Positions 51,258 to 64,000 of a stretch of DNA of 64,000 nt are shown piece by piece. The position numbers were made by a program, and so were the translations under genes. The notes beneath the pieces are model-generated. The model was given only the letters and a program-made list of their open reading frames with translations. It was not told the origin of the DNA and searched no databases. Position 1 is the first letter of the stretch. The number at the start of each line of letters is the position of its first letter. The DNA comes from Bosea vestrisii (GTDB lineage Bacteria > Pseudomonadota > Alphaproteobacteria > Rhizobiales > Beijerinckiaceae), in contig NZ_CP126307.1 in NCBI RefSeq assembly GCF_030144325.1, positions 459,748 through 523,747 on the forward strand, read 5' to 3'.

Positions 51258-52336
51258 TCAGGCTCCTTCCCGGTCGATAGCGGCGCGAGCGCCGCCGCAG
51301 GATTCGCGCACCAGCAGGCGCACCGGCAGCACCTGCTCGCGGGGCGGCGGCTCGGCCTCGCCTTCCAGCCGGCCGATCACCGCCTCGACGGCGAGCCGGC
51401 CGATATCGGCGCGGGAATAGTCGACCGTGGTCAGTTCCGGCGTAACGAAGCCACCGAGTGCGATGCCGTCGAAGCCGACGACCGCCATCTCCTCCGGCAC
51501 GCGCACGCCGTGCTGGCGCAGCGCATGCAGCACGCCGATCGCCATCTGGTCGCTGTAGACGAAGACGGCGCTCGGCCGTTCGTCCTGTGCCAGCAGCTCT
51601 TCCATTGCCGAGAAACCGCCGGCGAGACTTGGCTCCGCCATCGCGACCAGGTGCGGGTCCACGGCGATACCGGCTTCCTGCAGCGCCCGCGCATAACCGT
51701 CCGAGCGCTCGCGGCGCTTCAGCAGGCGCTGTGACGTGCTGCCGATATGGGCGATGCGGAGATGGCCGAGATCGATCAGGTGGCGAGTCGCGACATAGCC
51801 ACCCCCTCCAGGTCGACACGCACAGCCTGGATTGCCGGATCGGGGCTGTGGTGCTGCATGACCACGATCGGCATGCCGTTGTCGGCGAGCTTCTTCAGGT
51901 CGGCAGCGAGGTCGGCGGGGGGAGCAGCGACGATCACGCCGTCGGCGACCCCGCCGGAGAGCAGCGCATAGGCCCGCCGCTGCACCTCGTCGAACTTCGC
52001 CGACATGATGTTCAGCGAGTAGCCACGCTCGAGCGCGGCAGCATGGGCGGCGCCGATGATCTCGGCATTGTAGAAACTGTCCAGCGTATAAAGCAGCAGC
52101 GCGATGACGTTGGTGCGCCAACGCCGCAGCGAACGCGCAGCATGGCTCGGCTGATAGCTCAGTCGGGCGGCTGCATCGGCGACGCGCGCCCGCGTCTCGG
52201 CCGAGATACCGAGCTCGCCGCCGCGATCATTGAGAACGAGGGAGACAGTGGTCCGCGAGACGCCGGCGAGCTTGGCCACCTCCGCGCTGGTGGCGCGGCG
52301 ACTGGTTCGCTCGAGCGGAAGCGCGCGCTTCGCCAA
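51258..52336 (-). pseudogene. LacI family transcriptional regulator, frameshifted in a G-run at ~51804-51808
   Basis: HTH ...RRATSAEVAKLAGVSRTTVSLVLND... plus the N-terminal sugar-binding half end ...AVRVDLEGVAMSRLAT*. The remainder (...GGGGYVATRHLIDLGHLRIAHIG...VFVYSDQMAIGVLHALRQHGVRVPEEMAVVGFDG...) lies in the +1 frame to 51258, with the junction inside GAGGGGGTGG. TTG start with a GGAGGG SD. Confidence 0.65.
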
Positions 52337-52852
52337 AGCTCATCCCTCCATAGATTACTATCTAACACGATTTAGGAAGAGGCTAGATGCGAACTCACCC
52401 TCCTGTCAAGGCTTACGGGATGGGCGCTTTCGCTGCTGCGGAGAATTCCAGGGCGCACATTACAGGGCAGCTTGTTCGATGTGCGCGATCAAATCGGTGG
52501 AGGTTTGGCCCCGATCAATGCCTGTATCGTCGACGGCTCCCCCTCCCCTAAAGAACGGAGCGATCTACCGGATCAGGCTAGCCAATCAGCAGATCGGAAT
52601 GCCTCGGTTGGATCGTCGGCGCGGCGACTAGTCCGGGGTGGCGGCTATGCCGGACGACCTTGAGCAGATCGATGCACCGGCCGCGAACTTGTGGGCAATT
52701 GAAAGCTCCGCCGGAGGCGTACGGGGGCTGACCGCGAAGAGCCCTCCGAGCTCGGCGCCATTTACGCTGGTCGCAAAAGACAGCGAGTTCTTGCGAGGAA
52801 TGGCACCGCAGGAACCGGACCGAACATCCCGCGATGAATTGCGGCCTCTTTG

Positions 52853-53629
52853 CTATTCCGCCGCGCTTTTCTGCGCGTAGCCGAGGCGCTGGTTGAGCTC
52901 TTCCAGCAGCTTCTCGGCGGCGTCGGCGATGACGGTGCCGGGTGGGAAGATCGCGCTGGCGCCGGCCTCGATCAGCGCGTCGAAATCCTGTGGCGGGATC
53001 ACGCCGCCGACGACGATCATGATGTCGGGTCGCCCAGCCTTGGCGAGCGCCGCCTTCAGCTCGGGCACCAGCGTCAAATGGCCGGCAGCCAGCGACGAGA
53101 CGCCGACGATATGGACGTCGTTCTCGACGCCCTGCCGCGCCGCCTCGTCGGGCGTGGCGAAGAGCGGTCCGATATCGACGTCGAAGCCGAGATCGGCGAA
53201 GGCCGAGGCGATCACCTTCTGGCCGCGGTCGTGGCCGTCCTGGCCCATCTTGGCGACAAGGATGCGCGGGCGGCGCCCGTCCGCCTCCTCGAAGGCCTCG
53301 CACATCAATTGCACGCGCGTCACCGCAGGGTTCATCTCGCCGACCTCCCGCTTGTAGACGCCCGAGATCGACTTGATCTCGGCCCGGTGGCGCCCGAAGA
53401 CCTGCTCCATCGCCAGCGAGATCTCGCCGACGGTCGCCTTCGCCCGCGCCGCCTTGACCGCAAGGTCGAGCAGATTGGCCTTGCCTTGCGCGCCATGGGT
53501 CAGCGCGGTGAGGGCCGCCTGGCTCAAGCGACGTCGGTCTTCAACGTCCTGAGGTCGACATATTGCCGCCCCATGCGTCGGCTGCGGCCGCCACAAGGGC
53601 GACCGTCCCGAGCCTCTGCTACAAATCAT
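52853..53629 (-). pseudogene. Methylmalonyl-CoA mutase family protein, 3' fragment only (linker + B12-binding domain); 5' catalytic domain absent
   Basis: ...LSQAALTALTHGAQGKANLLDLAVKAARAKATVGEISLAMEQVFGRH... matches the end of the mutase TIM-barrel/linker. RPRILVAKMGQDGHDRGQKVIASAFADLGFDVDIGPLF...VHIVGVSSLAAGHLTLVPEL...IMIVVGGVIP is the cobalamin-binding domain (DxHxxG). The ORF begins 6 nt from the autotransporter stop, so ~450 aa of N-terminal sequence are missing. Confidence 0.6.
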
Positions 53630-53635
53630 CTGCCC

Positions 53636-56600
53636 TTAGAAGCTGACCCTAAGCTGGGCCGATCCGCCGATGCGGCTGCTATTGGCGGAGAGCTCGCTGT
53701 CGAGGCTGAGGCCGAGCGTGACGCGCTCGCTGAGCCTGGCCATGGCGCCGACGCCGACGAGGGCGCTGTTGCGGTCGGCTTGGGCGCCAGTCGCGGTGAA
53801 GCTCGCGCCGGGCAGTCCGATCAGGTTCGCGGTCAGGTCGGCATCACGCCGAAAATAGTGCGCCCAGGCCACCCGGACATAGCCGGTGACGGCAACACCG
53901 CCGAGCACGGTATCGGCATCAAGCTGCAGGCCGAGCTCGCTGCGGGCGGTGACATCGCCGCGCTTGGCCAGCGCGAGCGCCCCGGCATTGGCTCCTGCCC
54001 AGTTCGCCTCGATCAGGGCTGGGCTGCGCGCCCGCGTCGCCTGGATCGCTGCTAGCGGCGAGAGCGAGAGCCCGTTCCAATTCAGCAGCGCGGCGCTTGC
54101 CTGCAGCCGCCCGCTCCACGCTGTCGTCGCATAGGAGGATGACAGGCTCGAGCCCAGCACCGGAATGCTGCGGCGGATGTCGTTCTCGAGTCTGGCGTAG
54201 CTCAGCGCTGCGCCGAGCCTGACCGGGCCGAGCTGCGTCACGCCGTAGAGGCCTGCCTGGAATACCTCCGCATCGACCTTGCCGATCACGCCCGGCAGCG
54301 AAGCCCGCGCCTTGCCGCCCGAAAGCGCGACACCCGCGACCGTCCCCGGCTGCAGCCGGACATCGATGCCCGTCGCCAGATGCGCGTCGTCGATCGTGCG
54401 CCTGGCCGAGCCGATATAGGCACTACCGTCGGTGCGGCCATGGGAGCCATAGGCCGAGCCCCAGACCGAATAGAACGGCAGGTCGAGACGCGAGGGGCCA
54501 GCAGGTCGATCCGCGCCCTTGCGCGCGAGACCGGAGAACGCCGCCGCGCCTGGCCCAGCCGCCCCGGCATCGCCGAGCCGACCCATGGCCGTCGGATCGA
54601 GCATCACCCGCAAGAACTGGTCGGACGCGGCATTCGCCATTGCAGGTGCAGCGGTGTGCACCTCGCCCGACAGGCTGTTCACCGCAGCCGGAATCGATGC
54701 CGCCGGCAGATTGTAGATCCCGAACAGTGAGGACGGATCGGCACCATCCGCCACCGCTCGGTCGATGGCCCTGCCAATGGCGTAGGCATTCTTCGGCCCC
54801 GTCACCCCGATAAAGCCTGGGCCGGGAGACATCACCGGTGGATCGACAGGCGTCAGCGGCTTCGGCGTCAGCGTCAGCTGCACGTCATTGCTCGTGTAGC
54901 TCACTGTCGTGGTGACGCCATCGCCAAAGCTGCCTGTCGTATCGACCGGGCTGAAGGTGCCGGTCCGGCCCCCGGTCGCCGAGAGCAGCGTGTAGGGCGA
55001 GGAGAAGGTATAGGCGCCGCCGAGCGGCACGATCCGCAACGTTCCCGCCAGCGAAGCCGTGCCGGAGACATCGACCCGGTCGGCATTCGCACCCTGCACC
55101 TCGGCGAGATAGGTCGAGCCCGCGTTGAGGGTCAGGTCTCCCCGCACAGTCAGCGTGCCCGGCGAGTTGCCGGGCGACAGCGTGCCGCCATTGATCACCG
55201 TCGTTGGAACCACGCCCGCACCACCGAGCGTCGCGCCGGCCGCAACCGTCACACTGGAGGACGCCGCAATCGAGCCGTTCACGATCAGCGAGCCGGCATT
55301 GACCAGCGTCGCGCCCTCGTATGTGTTCACTCCGTTCAGGGTGAAGCTGCCAGTGCCGACCTTGGTCAGGGAGCCATCACCGAAAATGCTGCCAATGGTG
55401 CCGCTGAAGATGGTGCTCGTGTTGTTCGCACCCGTTGTCAGCACTACTCCCGGGCTGAGGATCACGTTCGTATCTGCCCCACCAGCAAGCGAGCCGATCC
55501 GCTGGTCGAATAGCGTCTCAAACTGCGAACCGGCCCCCGTCAGGCTGACCGCCCCCGTGGATGACAGGGCGTTGGGCTCGAAAACGACGAACCGAGCGCC
55601 GTTGGAGATGTTGATCGCGGTCGAGTTGAGGATGGACCCGCCCTGGCCAATTCTCAGTGTCCCACCCGCGACACTGGTTGGGCCGGAATAGGTGTTGGTC
55701 CCAAAGATATTGAGACCGGCCGATCCCGTCTTGGTCAGACCGCCCGAGCCGGAAATATCGCCCCTGAAGACAAAAAAGGCGCTGTTGTCGATGGTCAATA
55801 TCGCCGCGCCCAGTTTGATCGCCGTGCCGGGGGCGTTTCCTTCCAATCTCTTGACGGTTTGATCGTAGCCGTTGAGGTCCCAGGTGCTGCTGCCCTGAAG
55901 GATGATACCGGCAGAAGAGGTCAGGGCATTGGCCGTACCCATCCGCAGCGTACCTGCCGAGATCGTCGTATCTCCGGTGTAGCTTTGCACCCCGGCCAGG
56001 GTGAGGGTGCCGGTGTTCGTCTTCGTGAAACTGCCATCGCCCGAGATGGTCCCGGAATAGGTGCCGTCGCTTCCCTGGTTGAAAACGACGGCGCGCGTTC
56101 CAGGGCCCGTCGCAAAAGTCAGGTTGCCGGCCATGCTGGCCGTGCTGCCGCTGAGCGTCCCTTCCCGGACCGTCCAGTTCTGGCTGCCGGCTCCCGCCAG
56201 CGCCCAGGTCGACGTGCCCGTCTTTTCGAAAGCCGTGAAGCCGGTATGGCTACTCGTCAAGTTCGAAAGGTCGACAGAGCCATTCGTGGCTCCGCCGAGC
56301 GCCAGAACATTGTTGGTGCCGCCGGGCGCAACCACGACATTGCCGTTAGTTACTGACCCGGCCCACATCTCGAAACGATTGTCGCTACCGAAGAGCTCGA
56401 CCGCATTGGCGCGCACGCCGTCGCCGGAAAGCCCACCCGAGATCGATCCGGAATTGATGATCGAGATGCCGCCGCTCGCCGCGCCGACGATGCCGACGCC
56501 GCCGGGGCCAAAATTGCTGCCGGCAACGACCGTGCCGCCAGTACCGCCTGAAATCGTCCCGGCATTGCTCAGGCTCGCGGTCTGGCCGTCCCGGAACACC

Positions 56601-57685
56601 ACGCCAGCCCCACCGGCGCCTGCAGCATAAACCGGGTTGGCCGAGATCTGGTTGCCGCCAGCGCCGCCCGAGATGACGCCGGTCGCCGTGTTGGCAACGG
56701 TGCCGCCCCAGGCTTCCAGGCCCGCACCGCCCGATCTTCGAGCGGGCACCGTATGGCCCGCATTTGCGTCGCCGCTGCGGCCGCCGGTGATGGTGGCCCG
56801 GTTGTCGATGGCGCCCTGATTGCTCAGAACGCCCGCGCCGCCGTGGCCGGCGTATTGGCCCGATCCACCCGCCCCGCCTGTGATGGTGCCGGCCTGATGG
56901 GACAAGGTGCCGCCATTATACAGGAGCAGCCCGGCGCCGCCGTCCCCGGATTCCCCGCCACCACCGCCCTGTCCGCCGGTAATGGCGCTGGTGCCACCCG
57001 CTCCGGTCGCGACAGTGATCGTGCCGCCATCGAGCAGCACCAGCCCCGCGCCACCGCCACCGCCACCGCGGCTCCCGCCACCGCCAGAGCCGCCCGTCAC
57101 GTTGAACCCGCTCGTGTCGAGCATGGCGCCGGCGCCGGCCAGGACAAGGCCGCCAGCGCCGCCGCCGTTACCACCTCTATCAGCCAGGCCACCCGTGCCA
57201 GCCAAGCCAGCCGCTCCAGCTCCGCCGCCATGGTCTGCGCCAAATTGGAAGGGACCAGTCGTACCGAGGACAGTACCGCTGCCTCCGGCTCCGCCCGCTC
57301 CGCCATCGCCGGGACTTGCGGAGTCAAAACTGCCGATACCACCACCGCCGCCACCACCGGCAGCAAGATCATTGGGCGTCCCGGGGGCCCGCCTGCGCCG
57401 CCGCCCCCCAGCGCCATTATCTCCGGTTCCGCCCGGCGAGGCGGAGCCGCCGGGAGCCTGCGCCGCCGAGCCGCCAGCCCCTGTCAATCCAAATGCCCCG
57501 CCGCCGGCCCCGCCCCCGCCACCTGCGATGCCGCCAGCTCCATCGGTCGCGCCAATGCCACCACTATTGCCACCACCAGTGCCGCCACCCTGAGTGATCT
57601 GCTGCGCAGCAGCCGGGTGGGGCAACAGCAACAGCCCCGCGCCGAGCGACAATCCGAGCGAAAGGCAGGTCCAGGAGGTCGTCAT
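53636..57685 (-). CDS. Autotransporter (type Va) with Gly-rich beta-helical passenger carrying PATR repeats and C-terminal beta-barrel
   Basis: Signal peptide [29 protein letters not shown]. The passenger is dominated by GGxGG repeats and autotransporter-associated beta-strand repeats (...[25 protein letters not shown]..., ...[26 protein letters not shown]...). The C-terminal barrel ends ...[25 protein letters not shown]. The ORF is open to 58024; start placed at ATG 57685. Confidence 0.8.
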
Positions 57686-58088
57686 GCGCAGGTTTTTCCG
57701 CCGCCGCGAAACAGCGCCCGGATGCGCCTGAACTCCCGCACCATCCGCATCACCGCAACCACCAGAAAAGGCAGGGGCGATAGATCCTGACAGGGCAGGC
57801 ATCGATCTCATCGGTGCCGTAGCGTATGAAAGCGCAAGCGGGCGCATCAGCGACTGGCGTCCGCAGACCGTCATAGAAATCCCCCTCCTGTGCCGCGAGC
57901 GGGCCGACGACCCTTTCAGCACCGCTCCGATCCCGCGCTCCTTTCCGGAGCGCCGCGTCCTGCGTTGCAGCTGGGTCGGCTCAAATGCGTCCGCCCGCAC
58001 CTGAAACCGCAGCAACGTCATCATTCCGTCAGGCGAACAGCGAGGCGGATTGGGATCAGGATAAATCCCCCGTTCCCGACAACGCCAT

Positions 58089-58366
58089 CAATCAATTCTG
58101 CTGAATTCTGACCAATTCTTGCAGGACTTTCGCGGAGCAGCGAAGATATAGACCGCTATGCTTCTCGTGCGGCTTTTACGCGGATTAACCACGGCCGCCG
58201 CCTACCGGAATGGGCAATATCGCTCCGTTACCCACCTGGCGCAGGGGCTCCGGAATTGCCGCGCGCCGCCTTTTTTCTCAGCGCGCCCAAAGCAGTATTT
58301 CGGATGCATATTTTAATCGTGGGCGACTTCTCTACCAATGAGAGCCAATCAATTCTGACAAATTCT
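58089..58366. promoter_or_regulatory. AT-rich intergenic region with phased AATTCTG direct repeats (candidate response-regulator binding sites)
   Basis: CAATCAATTCTG-CTGAATTCTG-ACCAATTCTTG has three AATTCT units at 10-bp phasing (58094/58104/58114), and a second pair lies in GCCAATCAATTCTGACAAATTCTTACG (58351/58361). GC content drops to ~45% between the divergent autotransporter and the two-component genes. Confidence 0.3.
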
Positions 58367-58449
58367 TACGATTCCGGATCGCTCTTGCACGACTCCTCAA
58401 CTCCTGCGAAGTGTAAGCTTACAGATATTGCTCATGAAGCCGCATAAGG

Positions 58450-59898
58450 ATGCTTGATCTCAAAACCGTTCTGGTTGTGGCGCTGGCGACGGCCAGCTTG
58501 CAGGCCGTCGCCTGGGTCTTCGTGTGGCGGGCCTGGCGCCATTTCTACGAGCTTAAATTCCTGGCAGCAGGTTTTGGAGCCATTGCCGTCGGCCTCCTCC
58601 TGATGCTCGTTCGTGGCGCGGAGCCGGCCGCTTTAGCCATCGTCTTGCACAACACGGTCATCAAGCTTGGACTCGTGCTGCTCGCTGAAGGGCTCGCGCG
58701 CTTCCTGGGGCAGCCGCGCTACACATGGATCGGCGTCTCGCTCCTCGTCTTCCAGATCGTCGTCTGGAGCGCGGCCGTGGTGATCGACCCCGACAACCTC
58801 GCGATCCGCATTCACAGCTCGACCGTCTTCACCGTGATCATGATGTCGGTGATGTGCTTGGGCCTCGCGCGAGACAGGACGCAGCCTCCGCTCCTGCGCT
58901 GGATCACCATTGGTCTCCTCGCTGAGTACATGGCGGCCAGTTTCCTGCAGAGCGTCATCGAGTATCGCCTGCCGGCCGAGTTCGACAGTGGCCCGATTCT
59001 GGCGGACCGCAATGCCTGGTATCTGTTGCAGGGCACCCTCTTCCTGATCGCGCTTTTCGCCTGCCTGCTCTTCATGGTCAGCGCGAGGCTCTCCACCGAC
59101 CTGCGCAAAAACCACGATGCTCTGCTGCGGGAAGTGGAGGAACGGCGAAGGCTCGAGAGCCGGCTCAGCGCCAGCCTGGAGGCCGAGCGTGCCTTGCGCG
59201 ACGAGCAGGCGGACTTCATGCGCGTCGTCAGCCATGAGTTCCGCACGCCGCTCGCGATCATTCGCAACGCCGCCGACATGATCGGCCTTGTCGGCGACAG
59301 ATCGCCCGACGCGACCCGAGAGCGCCTCTCCGGCATCGGCGAGGCGCTCAACCGCCTCTTTTCCCTGATCGACAGGTTCATGGCGGATGATCGAGAGAAT
59401 GGCTTTCAGCCGGAGCCGCTTCAGCTCGGCTCCCTGATAGGAGACGTGCGGCTGCATTTCGAGATGACTGCACGCGGCGAGCGCCTGCAGTTCATCATGG
59501 AAGACGAAACAGTCTCTTTCGACGCCGACCCGGACATGCTCGCGACAGTCATCATCAACCTGATCGACAACGCCTTGAAATATTCGCCGGACGACCTGCC
59601 GATCCGCATAGCGACCTGGGCGGAGCACGGATTCGTCGTGATCCAGGTCCAGGATCGCGGCATCGGCATTCCCGGTGCCGAGCTCAGCAAGATCGGACGT
59701 CGCTTCTTCCGAGCATCCAATGCCAAGGCCAGTACCGGTACCGGTCTTGGGCTCTACTCGGCGCGCAAGCTCCTAGCCTACCACGGAGGGACGCTGCAGC
59801 TGCTTCCCAACGATGAAGGGGGAACGACAGCCATCGTGCGCCTGCCTTCGTCGGGCGAGGTATCCAGCGCTGAGTTGCCTGAGGAGACGACGGCGTGA
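58450..59898 (+). CDS. Sensor histidine kinase (multi-TM sensor + HisKA + HATPase_c)
   Basis: Six hydrophobic helices, then the H-box ...FMRVVSHEFRTPLAIIRNAADMI... and the ATPase blocks ...INLIDNALKYSP... and ...VQDRGIGIPGAELSKIGRRFFRA...GTGLGLY... Confidence 0.85.
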   Translation: MLDLKTVLVVALATASLQAVAWVFVWRAWRHFYELKFLAAGFGAIAVGLLLMLVRGAEPAALAIVLHNTVIKLGLVLLAEGLARFLGQPRYTWIGVSLLVFQIVVWSAAVVIDPDNLAIRIHSSTVFTVIMMSVMCLGLARDRTQPPLLRWITIGLLAEYMAASFLQSVIEYRLPAEFDSGPILADRNAWYLLQGTLFLIALFACLLFMVSARLSTDLRKNHDALLREVEERRRLESRLSASLEAERALRDEQADFMRVVSHEFRTPLAIIRNAADMIGLVGDRSPDATRERLSGIGEALNRLFSLIDRFMADDRENGFQPEPLQLGSLIGDVRLHFEMTARGERLQFIMEDETVSFDADPDMLATVIINLIDNALKYSPDDLPIRIATWAEHGFVVIQVQDRGIGIPGAELSKIGRRFFRASNAKASTGTGLGLYSARKLLAYHGGTLQLLPNDEGGTTAIVRLPSSGEVSSAELPEETTA

Positions 59899-60587
59899 CG
59901 CAGATTCTGATCGTCGAGGACGAAACGAGGTTGCGCAAGGATCTGGCCGATTTTCTCGGCCTATGCGGATTCACGGCCAGTGGGGTCGCAACAGCGCATG
60001 AGCTGCGTCAGGCACTCGCGGATGGCCATTCACCAGACGTGATCATTCTCGATGTCGGCTTGCCGGACGGCAATGGCTTTGAGCTCGCAAGCCAGATTCG
60101 TGAAACCCACCGCTGCGGCATCATCATGCTGACGGCGCTCGGCGACAGTGACGACCGCATCCGGGGCTTCGAGAGCGGCGCTGACATTTACCTCGTCAAG
60201 CACAGCACACTGCGCGAGATCGAAGCGGCAATTCGCAGCCTGCTGCGACGGAGCGGAAACCTGCCCAGCTCTGCAAACGGCGGTGATCAGTGGGTGCTGG
60301 ATGGCACGAATTGGATGCTGGTCGCGCCCAATCACCGTTCGCTCAAGCTAACGGCGACTGAATTCGCCTTCATGAGCGTGTTGTGCAGCAATGGTGGCGA
60401 CATCTGTCAGCGCGAGGATCTGATGGAGACGCTCGCCCGCCCCAGATCAAATTTCGGCAACCGTCATCTCGACGCCATCGTCAGCCGCTTGCGCCGCAAG
60501 ATCGAGGAACGCACCAGCCTGCCAGCGCCAATCAAGGTCGTCTATGGCGTCGGATACACCTTCACAGGCGCTGCGGCGATGCAATGA
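59895..60587 (+). CDS. Response regulator, OmpR/PhoB-type winged-helix DNA-binding
   Basis: REC domain ...ILIVEDETRLRKDLADFL...DVIILDVGLPDGNG...DIYLVKHSTLREIEAAI..., then a trans_reg_C domain ...LKLTATEFAFMSVLCSNGGDICQREDLMETL...RHLDAIVSRLRRKIE...VYGVGYTF. GTGA overlap with the kinase. Confidence 0.85.
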   Translation: MTQILIVEDETRLRKDLADFLGLCGFTASGVATAHELRQALADGHSPDVIILDVGLPDGNGFELASQIRETHRCGIIMLTALGDSDDRIRGFESGADIYLVKHSTLREIEAAIRSLLRRSGNLPSSANGGDQWVLDGTNWMLVAPNHRSLKLTATEFAFMSVLCSNGGDICQREDLMETLARPRSNFGNRHLDAIVSRLRRKIEERTSLPAPIKVVYGVGYTFTGAAAMQ

Positions 60588-60607
60588 GCATCCGTTGAAC
60601 GATTGCT

Positions 60608-60823
60608 TTGGCTTTCCGCGCAGCGCGCTGTTCGCTTCGGCAGACCCCCCACAGCTGGACCGCGCCAGAAACCGACACTCGGAAGCGGACGCACGGACCG
60701 GCGAGCGTCCCGATGCCGGTCCACGTCCTCTACGCTTCGACGCGTTACCTGGATCCGAAAGTTCGCGGCTTCGTGGATTGGTGCCGGGATGCCTTCACGG
60801 CCGGCGCCGACAACTCGGATTGA
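60608..60823 (+). pseudogene. LysR family regulator, extreme C-terminal remnant (~35 aa recognisable)
   Basis: ...PMPVHVLYASTRYLDPKVRGFVDWCRDAFT... matches the conserved LysR C-terminal tail (PVH.VYPS.R.L.PKVRAF.DFL). No HTH or co-inducer domain lies upstream. Confidence 0.35.
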
Positions 60824-61029
60824 GAGAGGCGACAGGGCGCCACTAGCACACGTCGCAGTTCACCGACCGGGTTCACGGTGCGGCAGCCGCCCGCCAGAAT
60901 TCGCAGGCGCCTGTGACCCATGCGCCTCCGAGCCTTCAGCCATGGCCGCCACCGCGACGGCACAGCCGCCCTCCGTGAAACGCGCAGAGCCACTTGCCAG
61001 CGCGCTCCTACCGAACAGACCTTTTCGTC

Positions 61030-61275
61030 TCAGCGACGGTTGCTTGAAACCCGGCCCTGATGCCCACTGGAGAGGAACTGCATGAAAGCCGGCGGGATCT
61101 CAATGAAGCTGAGAGCTTCCTGGCGGATATCGAAGTCCGCGATAGCCTCGGTTAGCATCTCGAATTCCCGCTCACCGTCAGAGCCCCTCAAGGATGAGAT
61201 TAGCTGTGCAGCTCGCAGTACAGCAGCCTTCCGCTGTTCATAAGACGAGATCATCACGGCGTCGGCGTTGGGCAT
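61030..61275 (-). CDS. Hypothetical protein (low-GC ORF, doubtful)
   Basis: 81-aa ATG ORF MPNADAVMISSYEQRKAAVLRAAQLISSLRGSDGEREFEMLTEAIADFDIRQEALSFIEIPPAF... in a ~52% GC patch. It has protein-like composition but no recognised family. Confidence 0.2.
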   Translation of the reverse strand: MPNADAVMISSYEQRKAAVLRAAQLISSLRGSDGEREFEMLTEAIADFDIRQEALSFIEIPPAFMQFLSSGHQGRVSSNRR

Positions 61276-61568
61276 GACACCACCTCATCGCTACGCAACT
61301 CACACCCACTACGTTAGCGATCCAATCGTTGGAATACGAGTCGCTCATACGAGATTGCTCGGCATCTAGCCGCAGACGCCTAAAATGGGGTTAGCTGACG
61401 GCCCGCGTTCGGAGACGTGGGCCGTCGTAGCGCGCCAGGAGCAGACACTGAGCCGCCACTGGAACCGGACATTCGTTTTTCCTTATCGGAGCTGCAGATG
61501 TTCAAATGGACTTGATTGGCGAGTGAGCAGACGGGCCACGGCGTTCATGCGCCGTGGCCCGTCGGAGG

Positions 61569-61939
61569 CTATCGTGCCGCTTCTTCGATCAGCCCCGCGA
61601 CGAGCTGAGGCTGGGAGACCATTACGACATGCGATGCGCCGTTCACCACGACCGTGCGCTTGGACCGCGCGCGCTCGGCCATGTATGCGAGCGCCTTGGC
61701 CGGGATGTTTTTGTCCCCCTCGCCATAGACGAAGTAGGACGGCTGGCTTGATCAATGTAGAGGTCGACGCCGCCGCCGGTGAGCTTGACCGGAGGCGCGA
61801 GCGCCTCGCCGAGCGTCCCGCCCGGGTACTTGCCGGCGAGATCAGCCGCCGCCTCGCCGGCATCCGGCGCGAACGCCGCCACATAGACCAGCGACTTGAC
61901 GTTGTCGTGGCCCTTCGCCGCGTTCGAAATGACCTGGCC
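61569..61939 (-). pseudogene. Alpha/beta-fold hydrolase, C-terminal fragment with internal frameshift
   Basis: ...GQVISNAAKGHDNVKSLVYVAAFAPDAGEAAADLAGKYPGGTLGEALAPPVKLTGGGVDLYIDQ is followed by a frameshift near 61745-61760, then ...SQPSYFVYGEGDKNIPAKALAYMAERARSKRTVVVNGASHVVMVSQPQLVAGLIEEAAR* (stop ~61569), the typical alpha/beta hydrolase C-terminal His region. No nucleophile-elbow N-terminal half is present. Confidence 0.4.
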
Positions 61940-62303
61940 GCACGCCGCGGTCCTTGATGACCGGAAACGCCTCCTTGCCGTGATGCTCGAAGGTAGGCGC
62001 CATGTCCTCATGGCTTTCGGGCAAGGCCAACCAGGTCTGGATGCCAAATAGGCTGTTCGGCCCGCTTCGGCTGGCTGCGGAGGTACGCTCCGAGTGGGAC
62101 ACGCCACGCCCGGCGACCATCCAGTTCAACGCGCCGGGGCGGATGATCTGGTCGGCCCCGGTACTGTCCCGATGATGAAAATCGCCGCGGAAGAGATAGG
62201 TCACGGTGCCGAGACCGATGTGCGGGTGCGGCCGGACGTCGATGCCCTGGCCGGTCAGCAGCTCGGCCGGCCCGGCCTGATCGAAGAAGATGAACGGCCC
62301 GAC
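61934..62303 (-). pseudogene. Pirin family (cupin) protein, N-terminal domain fragment
   Basis: ...VGPFIFFDQAGPAELLTGQGIDVRPHPHIGLGTVTYLFRGDFHHRDSTGADQIIRPGALNWMVAGRGVSHSE...LFGIQTWLALPESHEDMAPTFEHHGKEAFPV... matches the pirin N-terminal cupin. The C-terminal cupin is absent and the frame runs into the hydrolase fragment. Confidence 0.4.
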
Positions 62304-62389
62304 CATTTGCCGCTTCGGCGCCGGCAAGGCGCAGGATGGCGAATACGCCCACATCGGCGGGGCTGCGGCTCTCCGGCCAGGTCGAGCTG

Positions 62390-62719
62390 GCATCGGTCGA
62401 TGCGCCGCCGAACTGGAACCGCGTCGATGTCCTGACCGCCCATGCGCGCACGACCTATGCGGCGCTGGCCGGGATGCAGCAGCTGACCGTCGACAAATGG
62501 ATGGGACATCGGCCGTCGACGCCGGACGGGCTTCCTGTGATCGGCCGGTCCTCGCTGTCGCCGGATGTCTTCTACGCATTCGGGCATGGCCATGTCGGCT
62601 TCGCCGCGGGCCCGGCGACAGGGCGCATCGTCGCCGAGCATGTCGCCGGCCTGGCAGACGCCTCCGACATCGAAGCCTATTCGCCGCGGCGCTTCAGGCT
62701 CGGCCGGCTTCTGTCATGA
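62390..62719 (+). pseudogene. FAD-dependent oxidoreductase (DAO/DadA family), C-terminal fragment
   Basis: ...ALAGMQQLTVDKWMGHRPSTPDGLPVIGRSSLSPDVFYAFGHGHVGFAAGPATGRIVAEHVAGL... matches the C-terminal 100 aa of D-amino-acid/glycine oxidase family enzymes. No N-terminal FAD-binding GxGxxG region lies upstream. Confidence 0.4.
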
Positions 62720-62832
62720 GTGCCGGGAGCGAGCCATTCCCAAGCCGAAAGCCGCACCCTGCGCGCCCGGTCTCCGGACGTGGTGCGCCGCTGCTGGATT
62801 CGTCGATCCCCAAGCCTTGTAGGAGATGAAGA

Positions 62833-64000
62833 ATGCGTGGCGCAGATATCCTGGTCGAGATGCTGATCGGCTACGGCGTGGAGGTCGTCTTCGGCGTGCC
62901 GGGCGATACGAACGTGCCGTTCTATGAAGCGCTGCAACTATGCGGATTTCCCTTCATGTCGAAGATGAGTGCAAGGAGTTTCCGGCCTATCCAACGCTCC
63001 TTTCCCCGGAAAAGCTCGACACGCTGATCTCGCTGCTCACCGGCAGCAAGCGCCCGCTGATCGTCTCGGGCGGCGGGGTTAATCGCTCCTGCGCAGGTCC
63101 GCAGGTAACGGAGCTGGCGGAGCGCCTGAACATCCCGGTCTGCACGACGATGACCGGGCAAGGCACCATGCCTGACGACCATCGCCTGGCGGTCGGCGTC
63201 GTTGGCGACAACGGCTTTCACCCGCACGCCAACTGGGCGCTGGAACATGCCGATTTCGTGCTCTTCGTCGGCTCTCGAATGGGCTCTGTGGTGACGATTG
63301 GCTGGACTTTCCCGAAGATCACGCTGAACAAGCGCGTCGCCCAGATCGATATCGACCCGGAGATCATGGCGAACAACTACGAGAACGTGGTGTCGGTCCA
63401 GGGAGATGCCGGCCTGGTCCTCCAGCGCCTGATCGACATGGTTGCTGCCGACAGAGATGCCGGACGAACGCGGGAATGGGTCGACGAGCTCAACGATCTG
63501 CGCGCGAATTTCTGGGCGAATGCCGAGGTTCTGTTGAATTCGGAAGCAACGCCTCTGCGACCGGAGCGAGCCGTACGCTGCTTCAACGAGGCTCTGGAGC
63601 TCTATGGCAGGCCTGCCCATATCTATTCGGACGCCGGTACGCCGACGCCCCATATGACGCGCTTTCTCACGCTCAAGGATCGCAGGACGCGCCTTGCGAT
63701 TCCGCGTGCCTTCGGCGGCCTCGGTTCGGCGCTGCCCGCCACGGCCGGGGCGTGGTTCGCGGACAAGGAGCGCCGGCCCATCGGCATGTTCGGCGATGGT
63801 TCATTCGGGATGTCGCTCGGCGAACTGGAGACGCTCGTCCGCCTGCAGGTGCTGGCCATCCTCCTGCTGTTCGACAACGGCACGTTCGGATGGATCAAAG
63901 GCCTGCATCGGCTGAAGGGCCATAATCAATGTTTCGGCGTTGATTTCACGCCTCCCCGCGGCCAGGCGATCGCTGAGGCTTTCGATGTGAGAGCCTGGAC
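62833..64000 (+). pseudogene. Thiamine-diphosphate-dependent enzyme (acetolactate synthase-like) with internal deletion/frame break at ~62920-63000; 3'-partial
   Basis: N-terminal MRGADILVEMLIGYGVEVVFGVPGDTNVPFYEALQ breaks into garbage. A second frame resumes at ...LDTLISLLTGSKRPLIVSGGGVNRSCAGPQVTELAERLNIPVCTTMTGQGTMPDDHRLAVGVVGDNG... and continues through the TPP-binding region (...GMFGDGSFGMSLGELETLVRLQVLAILLLFDNGTFGWIKG...). About 130 aa of the pyrimidine-binding domain are missing, replaced by a ~78-nt low-GC stretch. The gene continues beyond the window. Confidence 0.5.

Follow-up and report, generated by a model that had tools for sequence, protein, structure and literature searches.

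The question raised by the last 3.4 kb of a 64,000-nucleotide stretch of Bosea vestrisii DNA (assembly GCF_030144325.1, contig NZ_CP126307.1, positions 459,748 to 523,747; hereafter the window) is how so many broken genes came to lie side by side on both strands. The sequence-only reading of this stretch had described a mosaic of at least five fragments, a decaying junkyard produced by repeated illegitimate recombination or deletion and possibly an old island boundary. Six-frame translation, Pfam searches and nucleotide comparisons confirm that window positions 60600-64000 are a patchwork of gene remnants. Each remnant was matched to full-length homologs, relative to which all five families (a LysR-family regulator, an alpha/beta hydrolase, a pirin, a DAO-family oxidoreductase dependent on flavin adenine dinucleotide (FAD), and a thiamine pyrophosphate (TPP) enzyme) are truncated or frameshifted. 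We consider it likely that recent homology-independent deletions, perhaps together with some rearrangement, trimmed dispensable plasmid-like accessory DNA around a module that was retained.

Gene remnants at the end of the window

The region was divided into the following features (positions are those of the window; L numbers denote comparison loci, and nt and aa stand for nucleotide and amino acid).

To 60587, plus strand: end of a response-regulator gene
60588-60666: 3´ flank of the response-regulator gene, still homologous to other Bosea
60667-60694: unassigned spacer, 28 bp, forming junction J1 between the end of the conserved block and the LysR remnant; homology to L003 and L056 stops at 60666 and LysR homology runs from 60695
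60695-60823, plus strand: LysR-family regulator remnant, last ~42 codons and stop (BLASTP, nt matches, partial PF03466)
60824-60978: unassigned GC-rich segment, 155 bp, with a flat profile of GC by codon position and no coding periodicity
60979-61470, minus strand: orf81 module, coding sequence 61030-61275 (homology to plasmid pNBC550)
61471-61514: unassigned spacer, 44 bp, between two blocks of pNBC550 homology (orf81 module and hydrolase 3´ flank)
61515-61568, minus strand: native 3´ flank of the hydrolase gene, homologous to DNA past the pNBC550 hydrolase stop, with a 14-bp hairpin
61569-61743, minus strand: alpha/beta hydrolase C-terminal piece, 57 codons and stop (identity to the pNBC550 hydrolase)
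61744-61941, minus strand: alpha/beta hydrolase middle piece, residues ~92-157 (identity to the pNBC550 hydrolase)
61942-62332, minus strand: pirin remnant, codons ~38-167, N-terminal cupin (PF02678; L053, L045)
62333-62719, plus strand: DAO-family FAD-dependent oxidoreductase remnant, last ~128 of 426 codons and stop (PF01266; L001, L047, L051)
62720-62832, plus strand: native DAO-TPP intergenic spacer with AGGAGA (blastn against L051; sequence read directly)
62833-62939, plus strand: native start and first 36 codons of the TPP enzyme (PF02776; L051)
62940-62942, plus strand: junction of the TPP internal deletion, 3 bp (L051 alignment)
62943-64000, plus strand: TPP enzyme remnant, aa 171-523 of 584, continuing 61 codons past the window (identical to WID97158.1)

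Only 227 bp of the region (28 + 155 + 44) are left without assignment; the 155-bp segment had no matches in plasmids, in the fetched loci or in the window itself. Rhizobial plasmids and chromids typically carry genes of the remnant families. GC content at the third codon position (GC3) is 0.87-0.92 in core genes of the left flank, 0.73-0.81 in the conserved block and 0.77-0.86 in the remnants, a pattern that fits accessory DNA.

The tail of a catabolic operon

Between 62331 and 64000, the DAO remnant, the spacer and the TPP remnant follow the native order of an operon that is intact on a Shinella plasmid (paSHIWSC3) and on two metagenome contigs (L047 and L051). There, a LysR gene on the minus strand is followed by genes for a solute-binding protein, a permease, an ATPase, an SDR protein, an MR/MLE enolase, the DAO protein (426 aa) and the TPP enzyme (584 aa). 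The window is collinear with the last 1.3 of these genes, at 77-86% nt identity and 91% aa identity for the TPP enzyme (over 353 residues of the intact 584-aa homologs). Positions 62331-62939 align to L051 9517-10107 in one blastn match of 611 columns, and 62943-64000 to L051 10514-11571. What differs is that everything upstream of DAO codon ~299 is gone, and that the TPP gene is frameshifted and has lost aa 37-170. Since the DAO and TPP pieces are one operon tail, the earlier count of at least five independent fragments was too high.

The DAO remnant matches PF01266 over profile positions 259-352 of 353 (E 1.1e-16), and its homology to 426-aa homologs begins at about codon 299, so that the N-terminal FAD-binding Rossmann part is missing. 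It had been recognised before as the C-terminal part of such an oxidoreductase, at 100 aa; we measure ~128 codons.

The TPP gene keeps its ribosome-binding site (RBS; AGGAGA), its ATG at 62833 and 36 native codons, with 36/36 aa identical to L051. The earlier statement that none of the fragments has a plausible start, made of the TPP gene as well, is therefore wrong for this gene, and for orf81, which has an RBS of its own, but it does hold for the pirin remnant. The N-terminal stub matches PF02776 over profile positions 1-40 of 119 (E 4.3e-8), and its frame reaches a stop at 63025-63027. Beyond codon 36, 406 bp are swapped for 3 bp (62940-62942), a net loss of 403 bp that removes aa 37-170 and shifts the frame. 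The ATG at 62940 arises from this deletion junction and is a fortuitous start with no recognisable RBS. The 414-aa frame that it opens is 100% identical to WID97158.1/WP_284170150.1 (P0001, B. vestrisii), which has the middle domain PF00205 and the PP-binding domain PF02775 and no PF02776; the remnant thus has no complete in-frame pyrimidine-binding (PYR) domain. A loss of ~130 N-terminal aa had been noted from the sequence, and that loss is real. In contrast, the 78-nt low-GC scar thought to replace them is the gene's own sequence: 62943-63000 encodes the native linker that leads from the first domain into the middle one (RISLHVEDECKEFPAYP; in intact homologs RISLHVESECIEFPAYP), at ~86% nt identity. 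A terminator-like match at 62932-62945 is within chance expectation.

Hydrolase, pirin and LysR remnants

The hydrolase remnant (61569-61941, minus strand) shows 87-94% nt identity to a 255-aa hydrolase of Bosea plasmid pNBC550. Its C-terminal piece is 87% identical in nt and 85-87% in aa, and its middle piece 94% and 95%, respectively. The two are separated by a 124-bp internal deletion at 61743|61744 that shifts the frame and removes ~41 residues; the hydrolase C-terminal half described earlier is real, but its lesion is this deletion and not a one-base frameshift. Residues 1-91 are gone, including the signal peptide and the GHSYGG nucleophile motif with the catalytic serine, and the remnant opens with the residue just past that motif (GQVISNAA...). 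It has neither a G-x-S-x-G nucleophile elbow nor a continuous fold. The native 3´ flank carries a perfect 14-bp hairpin at 61530-61563 (inverted repeat I6). On pNBC550 (L002, 6108-8013), the intact hydrolase gene lies beside an IS110 transposase gene and a phage terminase small-subunit gene, in a setting rich in mobile elements.

At 61941|61942 the pirin remnant is fused to the hydrolase piece in a different reading frame, and the fusion without a start to an N-terminal cupin fragment was read correctly before. It matches PF02678 (E 2.7e-30, profile positions 10-108 of 108), with 90% nt identity to L053, 77% nt identity to L045 and 91.5% aa identity to Sinorhizobium plasmid pBSY16_2. No match to Pirin_C (PF05726) was found in it, so it is not a bicupin, and it lacks a start codon and the first ~37 codons relative to L053, L055 and P0121. 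The pirin remnant is the ortholog of the pirin in the LysR-pirin pair of L053, L055 and pBSY16_2; here, by contrast, the DAO remnant has taken the place of the partner LysR and of the pirin's first 37 codons, both lost. The orthologous pirin of L053 (OZ176275.1, 10001-13239) is itself truncated at ~120 aa, with fragments of LigD (C-terminal, 89 aa) and of an autotransporter (85 aa) nearby, and that of L055 (10001-10959) is split by a frameshift; in both loci an intact LysR gene lies directly upstream of the broken pirin in the same orientation. Where a locus has the pirin or the DAO-TPP operon intact, none of the other remnant families was found within 10 kb.

The LysR remnant had also been recognised, as the last ~35 aa of a regulator; it measures ~42 codons. 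By BLASTP, 26/34 residues (76% aa identity) match residues 284-317 of a 321-aa LysR. The DNA shares 75-81% nt identity with the 3´ ends of plasmid-borne LysR genes from Agrobacterium and Rhizobium, and overlies the 3´ end of an annotated LysR on an Agrobacterium plasmid. The PF03466 match is partial (profile positions 176-208 of 209) and, at E 6.6e-4, under the curated cutoff. The helix-turn-helix (HTH; PF00126) and most of the substrate-binding domain are absent, so that this is not a full-length LysR. A degenerate pattern for the peptide YLDPKVRGFVDW, used to look for this remnant in other assemblies, gave 0 matches. We asked whether this LysR once belonged with the pirin or with the DAO-TPP operon and rejected both assignments: no similarity was found, and it is a different LysR.

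None of these remnants is expected to work, because the TPP enzyme is without its PYR domain, the hydrolase without its nucleophile, the pirin reduced to one cupin without a start, the DAO protein without its FAD part and the LysR without its DNA-binding domain. In thiamine-diphosphate enzymes every active site has to be built from two subunits, one supplying its PYR domain, which makes up half of the site, and the other its PP domain. It is probable that no piece of the region other than orf81 yields a working product.

Joins between the remnants

When the window is displayed beside the parental sequences, all joins are abrupt, with 0-4 bp of apparent microhomology. Pirin homology stops at 62332 against both L053 and L045, and DAO homology starts at 62331 against L001, L047 and L051, which places the pirin/DAO join at 62331-62333 with no filler. 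Hydrolase homology stops at 61941. The bases apparently shared are GGC/TGGC at the hydrolase deletion, ~1-3 nt at the hydrolase/pirin and pirin/DAO joins, and an equivocal CG at the TPP deletion. With these abrupt ends of homology and the short apparent microhomology, the joins look like products of illegitimate recombination or deletion, as had been proposed.

The absence of an insertion sequence (IS) or transposase remnant, observed already in the sequence-only reading, also stands. Pfam, repeat, tRNA and Rfam searches of the region and the window gave no sign of a mobile element: there was no IS, no transposase match, no tRNA, no Rfam family, and no significant direct or inverted repeat at the joins. 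Because only 227 bp are without assignment, there is no room for a hidden IS remnant.

Age of the damage

The remnants span ~870 codons (~810 inside the window) with no internal stop and no small indel. The ratio of nonsynonymous to synonymous substitution rates (dN/dS) is 0.083 for the TPP remnant, compared with 0.080-0.146 in a control between intact genes; it is 0.10 for the pirin, 0.11 for hydrolase piece a and 0.20-0.30 for the DAO remnant (control 0.22). In three-way relative-rate comparisons, lineage-unique aa changes numbered 12 versus 10 for TPP, 6 versus 7 for pirin and 9 versus 4 for DAO, with no excess in the lineage of the window. The marks of relaxed selection expected of pseudogenes (raised dN/dS, stops, small indels) are thus absent from these remnants.

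Since there are no stops or small indels, dN/dS of the TPP, pirin and DAO remnants and of hydrolase piece a equals that of the controls and there is no rate excess, the damage is young, and an old, decaying junkyard is not what the codons record. We read the low dN/dS as a sign of recent inactivation rather than continued function. Measured against the divergence from every relative at hand, the lesions are young; at a rough estimate, they might correspond to less than ~1% neutral divergence.

A small gene among the remnants

The low-GC open reading frame (ORF) on the minus strand, which had been called doubtful, is better regarded as probably a real, intact small gene of a small undescribed family. 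The 81-aa coding sequence orf81 (61030-61275) has the RBS GAGGTG and ~150-195 bp of conserved upstream DNA; a 420-490-bp block including this upstream region is 83-87% identical in nt to Bosea pNBC550, where the surrounding genes are unrelated. Among 1.84 billion cluster representatives searched, 13 relatives were found at E <= 1e-3, most of them 59-116 aa long. In the relatives that were aligned, the start is the same and a core is conserved, ERKAAVLRAAQL...EREFEMLT..AI..FDI. Searches of Pfam, NCBIfam and PHROG gave no matching family, and the product is annotated as a hypothetical protein (WID97157.1). The AlphaFold model has three helices, with a predicted local distance difference test score (pLDDT) of 67 and a predicted template modelling score (pTM) of 0.31, too weak for a fold search. 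This may be the only piece of the region that is expressed. The homolog on pNBC550 adjoins sbcCD, and L046 6001-6267 (minus strand) is also listed for the orf81 family.

The conserved block and its boundary

To the left of the patchwork lies a unit shared with other Bosea genomes:

53522..60666: autotransporter (minus strand), histidine kinase (plus strand) and OmpR-type response regulator (plus strand; WID97156.1) block, 7.1 kb (nt homology to L056)

Window positions 53522-60666 are 88.6% identical in nt to L056 over 7.18 kb, and homology stops at 53522 and 60666. For these comparisons, 42 related loci were fetched with the kinase as query, and the nearer L056 was added later. Eight other Bosea genomes (L003-L004, L006-L011) match the block at 73-84% identity, and its two-component genes also match Bosea L005. 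The block is thus present in 10 other Bosea genomes, in all of which the right-hand homology ends between ~60589 and 60666, with the end at exactly 60666 against both L003 and L056. The mosaic begins 28 bp beyond this end. Nothing in the other Bosea loci matches the flanks of L003, L004, L006 or L056, and in none of the Bosea genomes with the block were LysR, pirin, hydrolase, DAO or TPP relatives found downstream of the regulator.

An island boundary beside the autotransporter block had been suspected. The synteny break against 10 Bosea genomes supports a boundary, but the signatures of an island are absent: there is no tRNA anywhere in the 64-kb window, and no integrase or recombinase, att-like sequence or significant direct repeats were found in it. 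Terminal inverted repeats on the block were considered and rejected, with 16/500 shuffles reaching the score in L056 and zero signal in L003 and L004. The same holds for a motif, CGGACATTCGT, found at window 61466 and, in three relatives, close to where the block begins on the left; it occurs at chance level, and its longer alignment is non-significant. The kinase-regulator pair is also found in Mesorhizobium, Labrys, Sphingopyxis and others, at 64-80% aa identity.

Both flanks of the block are gene stumps in B. vestrisii. On the left, 52853-53522 (minus strand) encodes what is left of a methylmalonyl-CoA mutase large subunit (mutB), the C-terminal ~221 of ~715 aa with linker and B12-binding domain, cut at 53522, precisely where block homology starts; on the right is the LysR remnant. 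That the block took the place of a divergent mutB/LysR pair is not supported: elsewhere, mutB lies intact in a mutA-mutB operon without a LysR nearby. The protein-search entries for pirin and mutB are mostly short and partial, and intact paralogs of either could exist elsewhere in B. vestrisii. Farther left, a LacI-family regulator (51258-52350, minus strand) has its HTH (ATSAEVAKLAGVSRTTVSLVLND) in frame, yet no ATG, GTG or TTG upstream of it, and the first canonical start, at 52121, would drop the HTH; this gene could have lost its start codon or could use an unusual one.

Explanations for the patchwork

In the explanation that we think likely, at least five RecA-independent (illegitimate, microhomology-level) deletion joins would have cut an accessory chromosomal stretch, and the trimming would have reached the edges of the retained autotransporter/two-component block. 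The debris would stem from at least four transcription units: those of the LysR, the hydrolase and the pirin, and an amino-acid-type catabolic operon (LysR, ABC transporter, SDR, enolase, DAO, TPP) of which just the tail is left, as a DAO remnant and a TPP gene without its PYR domain. The orf81 gene would have escaped. The joins would thus be deletions in situ, not insertions, and could have been tolerated since the cargo was dispensable while the neighbouring block was under selection.

Several observations weigh against this explanation. Among the loci compared, none was seen to preserve the ancestral arrangement intact, and reconstruction of the ancestral gene order, suggested as a check, recovered the DAO-TPP order but not the whole. 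The orf81 and hydrolase blocks lie ~12 kb apart and in reverse order on pNBC550, and the hydrolase and pirin genes have the opposite relative orientation on pBSY16_2. The microhomology lengths are approximate, the parents being inferred from homologs only 77-94% identical. A 24-mer across the pirin/DAO junction had 0 matches in metagenome contigs, and no second independent assembly was found to carry it. Finally, dN/dS is 0.51 for hydrolase piece b and ~0.5 for orf81. Because order and orientation differ on pNBC550 and pBSY16_2, some rearrangement, and not deletion alone, may be involved. A single local shattering event would explain both the equally pristine fragments and the homology-free joins; that all joins, including those at 53522 in mutB and 60695 in the LysR remnant, come from one multi-break repair event religated by Ku/LigD-type end-joining strikes us as improbable.

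It is also conceivable that the pieces were captured rather than left behind, with short pieces of unrelated genes, from the genome or from plasmid DNA, serving as filler when a break was closed by end-joining or illegitimate recombination. Their nearest homologs are indeed scattered over Bosea pNBC550, plasmids of Shinella, Agrobacterium and Azospirillum, and Paracoccus and Sinorhizobium plasmids; their order and orientation match no reference locus, the joins are free of filler and show at most slight microhomology, and GC3 lies below that of the left-flank core genes. However, the DAO-spacer-TPP segment is collinear over 1.7 kb with the intact operon save for one internal deletion, as expected of the stump of a resident operon, the hydrolase retains its own terminator flank and the LysR remnant its own stop, no intact TPP copy above 92% identity was found in the protein database searched, and the two internal deletions, in the hydrolase and TPP genes, are plainly deletions. 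We therefore regard capture as rather unlikely.

Two further explanations would deny that there is any damage, either because the deposited genome is wrong or because the genes are not broken. Chimeric joins or collapsed reads could produce such a mosaic, and the exact remnant proteins occur in just one assembly, with the junction 24-mer absent from metagenome contigs. On the other hand, there are seven abrupt joins in 3.4 kb and none is at a repeat, the source is a single contig of 5,934,299 bp, the flanking genes, up to 1462 aa long, are intact and ~81% of the window lies under long ORFs of high GC3, and lesions of this sort do arise in nature, since two other genomes carry independent breaks in the same pirin family. 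We judge it quite improbable that the mosaic is an artefact of assembly or consensus. The idea that some remnants are functional new genes, namely the 414-aa TPP protein or the 127-aa DAO piece, draws on the open 414-aa frame, whose dN/dS shows no sign of relaxed constraint, and on the listing of its product as a protein in GenBank and RefSeq. A very recent lesion predicts a low dN/dS just as well, though, and PF02776 is absent save for 36 out-of-frame codons in an enzyme whose active site needs both PYR and PP domains. The start of the frame was made by the deletion junction, and the DAO piece is without the whole N-terminal FAD-binding part of the profile. New function is thus highly improbable, and trimming by recent deletions remains the explanation that we favor.

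Relation to known systems

Bacterial pseudogene clusters reportedly arise from deletional bias. The locus resembles them in its truncated or frameshifted dispensable genes, in the prevalence of deletion over point mutation, and in the position of accessory DNA beside a retained module. It differs from them in the unusual density of lesions (seven joins in 3.4 kb), in the absence of point decay and in the absence of IS elements. Such a cluster of seven joins without point decay reflects events that were very recent or possibly concerted. As at a genomic-island or plasticity boundary, there is a sharp break at 60666, the content is strain-specific and plasmid-like, and GC3 is slightly lower. In contrast to such a boundary, no tRNA, integrase, direct repeats or att-like sequence accompany the break, and the conserved unit is the 7.1-kb block itself. 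IS-mediated adjacent deletion differs in that no IS element or terminal remnant lies at any join here. We conclude that the region represents no new system but genome decay of an ordinary kind, in which a variable locus holds a cluster of deletion remnants of recent origin.

Significance

The main value of these observations is practical. Three pieces of the debris carry accessions: WID97158.1/WP_284170150.1, "TPP-dependent enzyme" (414 aa, 62940-64000+); WP_347975745.1, "NAD(P)/FAD-dependent oxidoreductase" (127 aa, window 62336-62719); and WP_347975747.1, "thiamine pyrophosphate-binding protein" (64 aa, window 62833-63027). These GenBank and RefSeq entries can spread into databases and metabolic reconstructions.

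For the organism, the region would be a clean, datable case of the removal of accessory DNA beside a retained module by homology-independent deletions instead of point decay. In addition, the region lies at the edge of a 7.1-kb block whose context is different in every Bosea genome with flanks compared, and this block may merit a study of its own.

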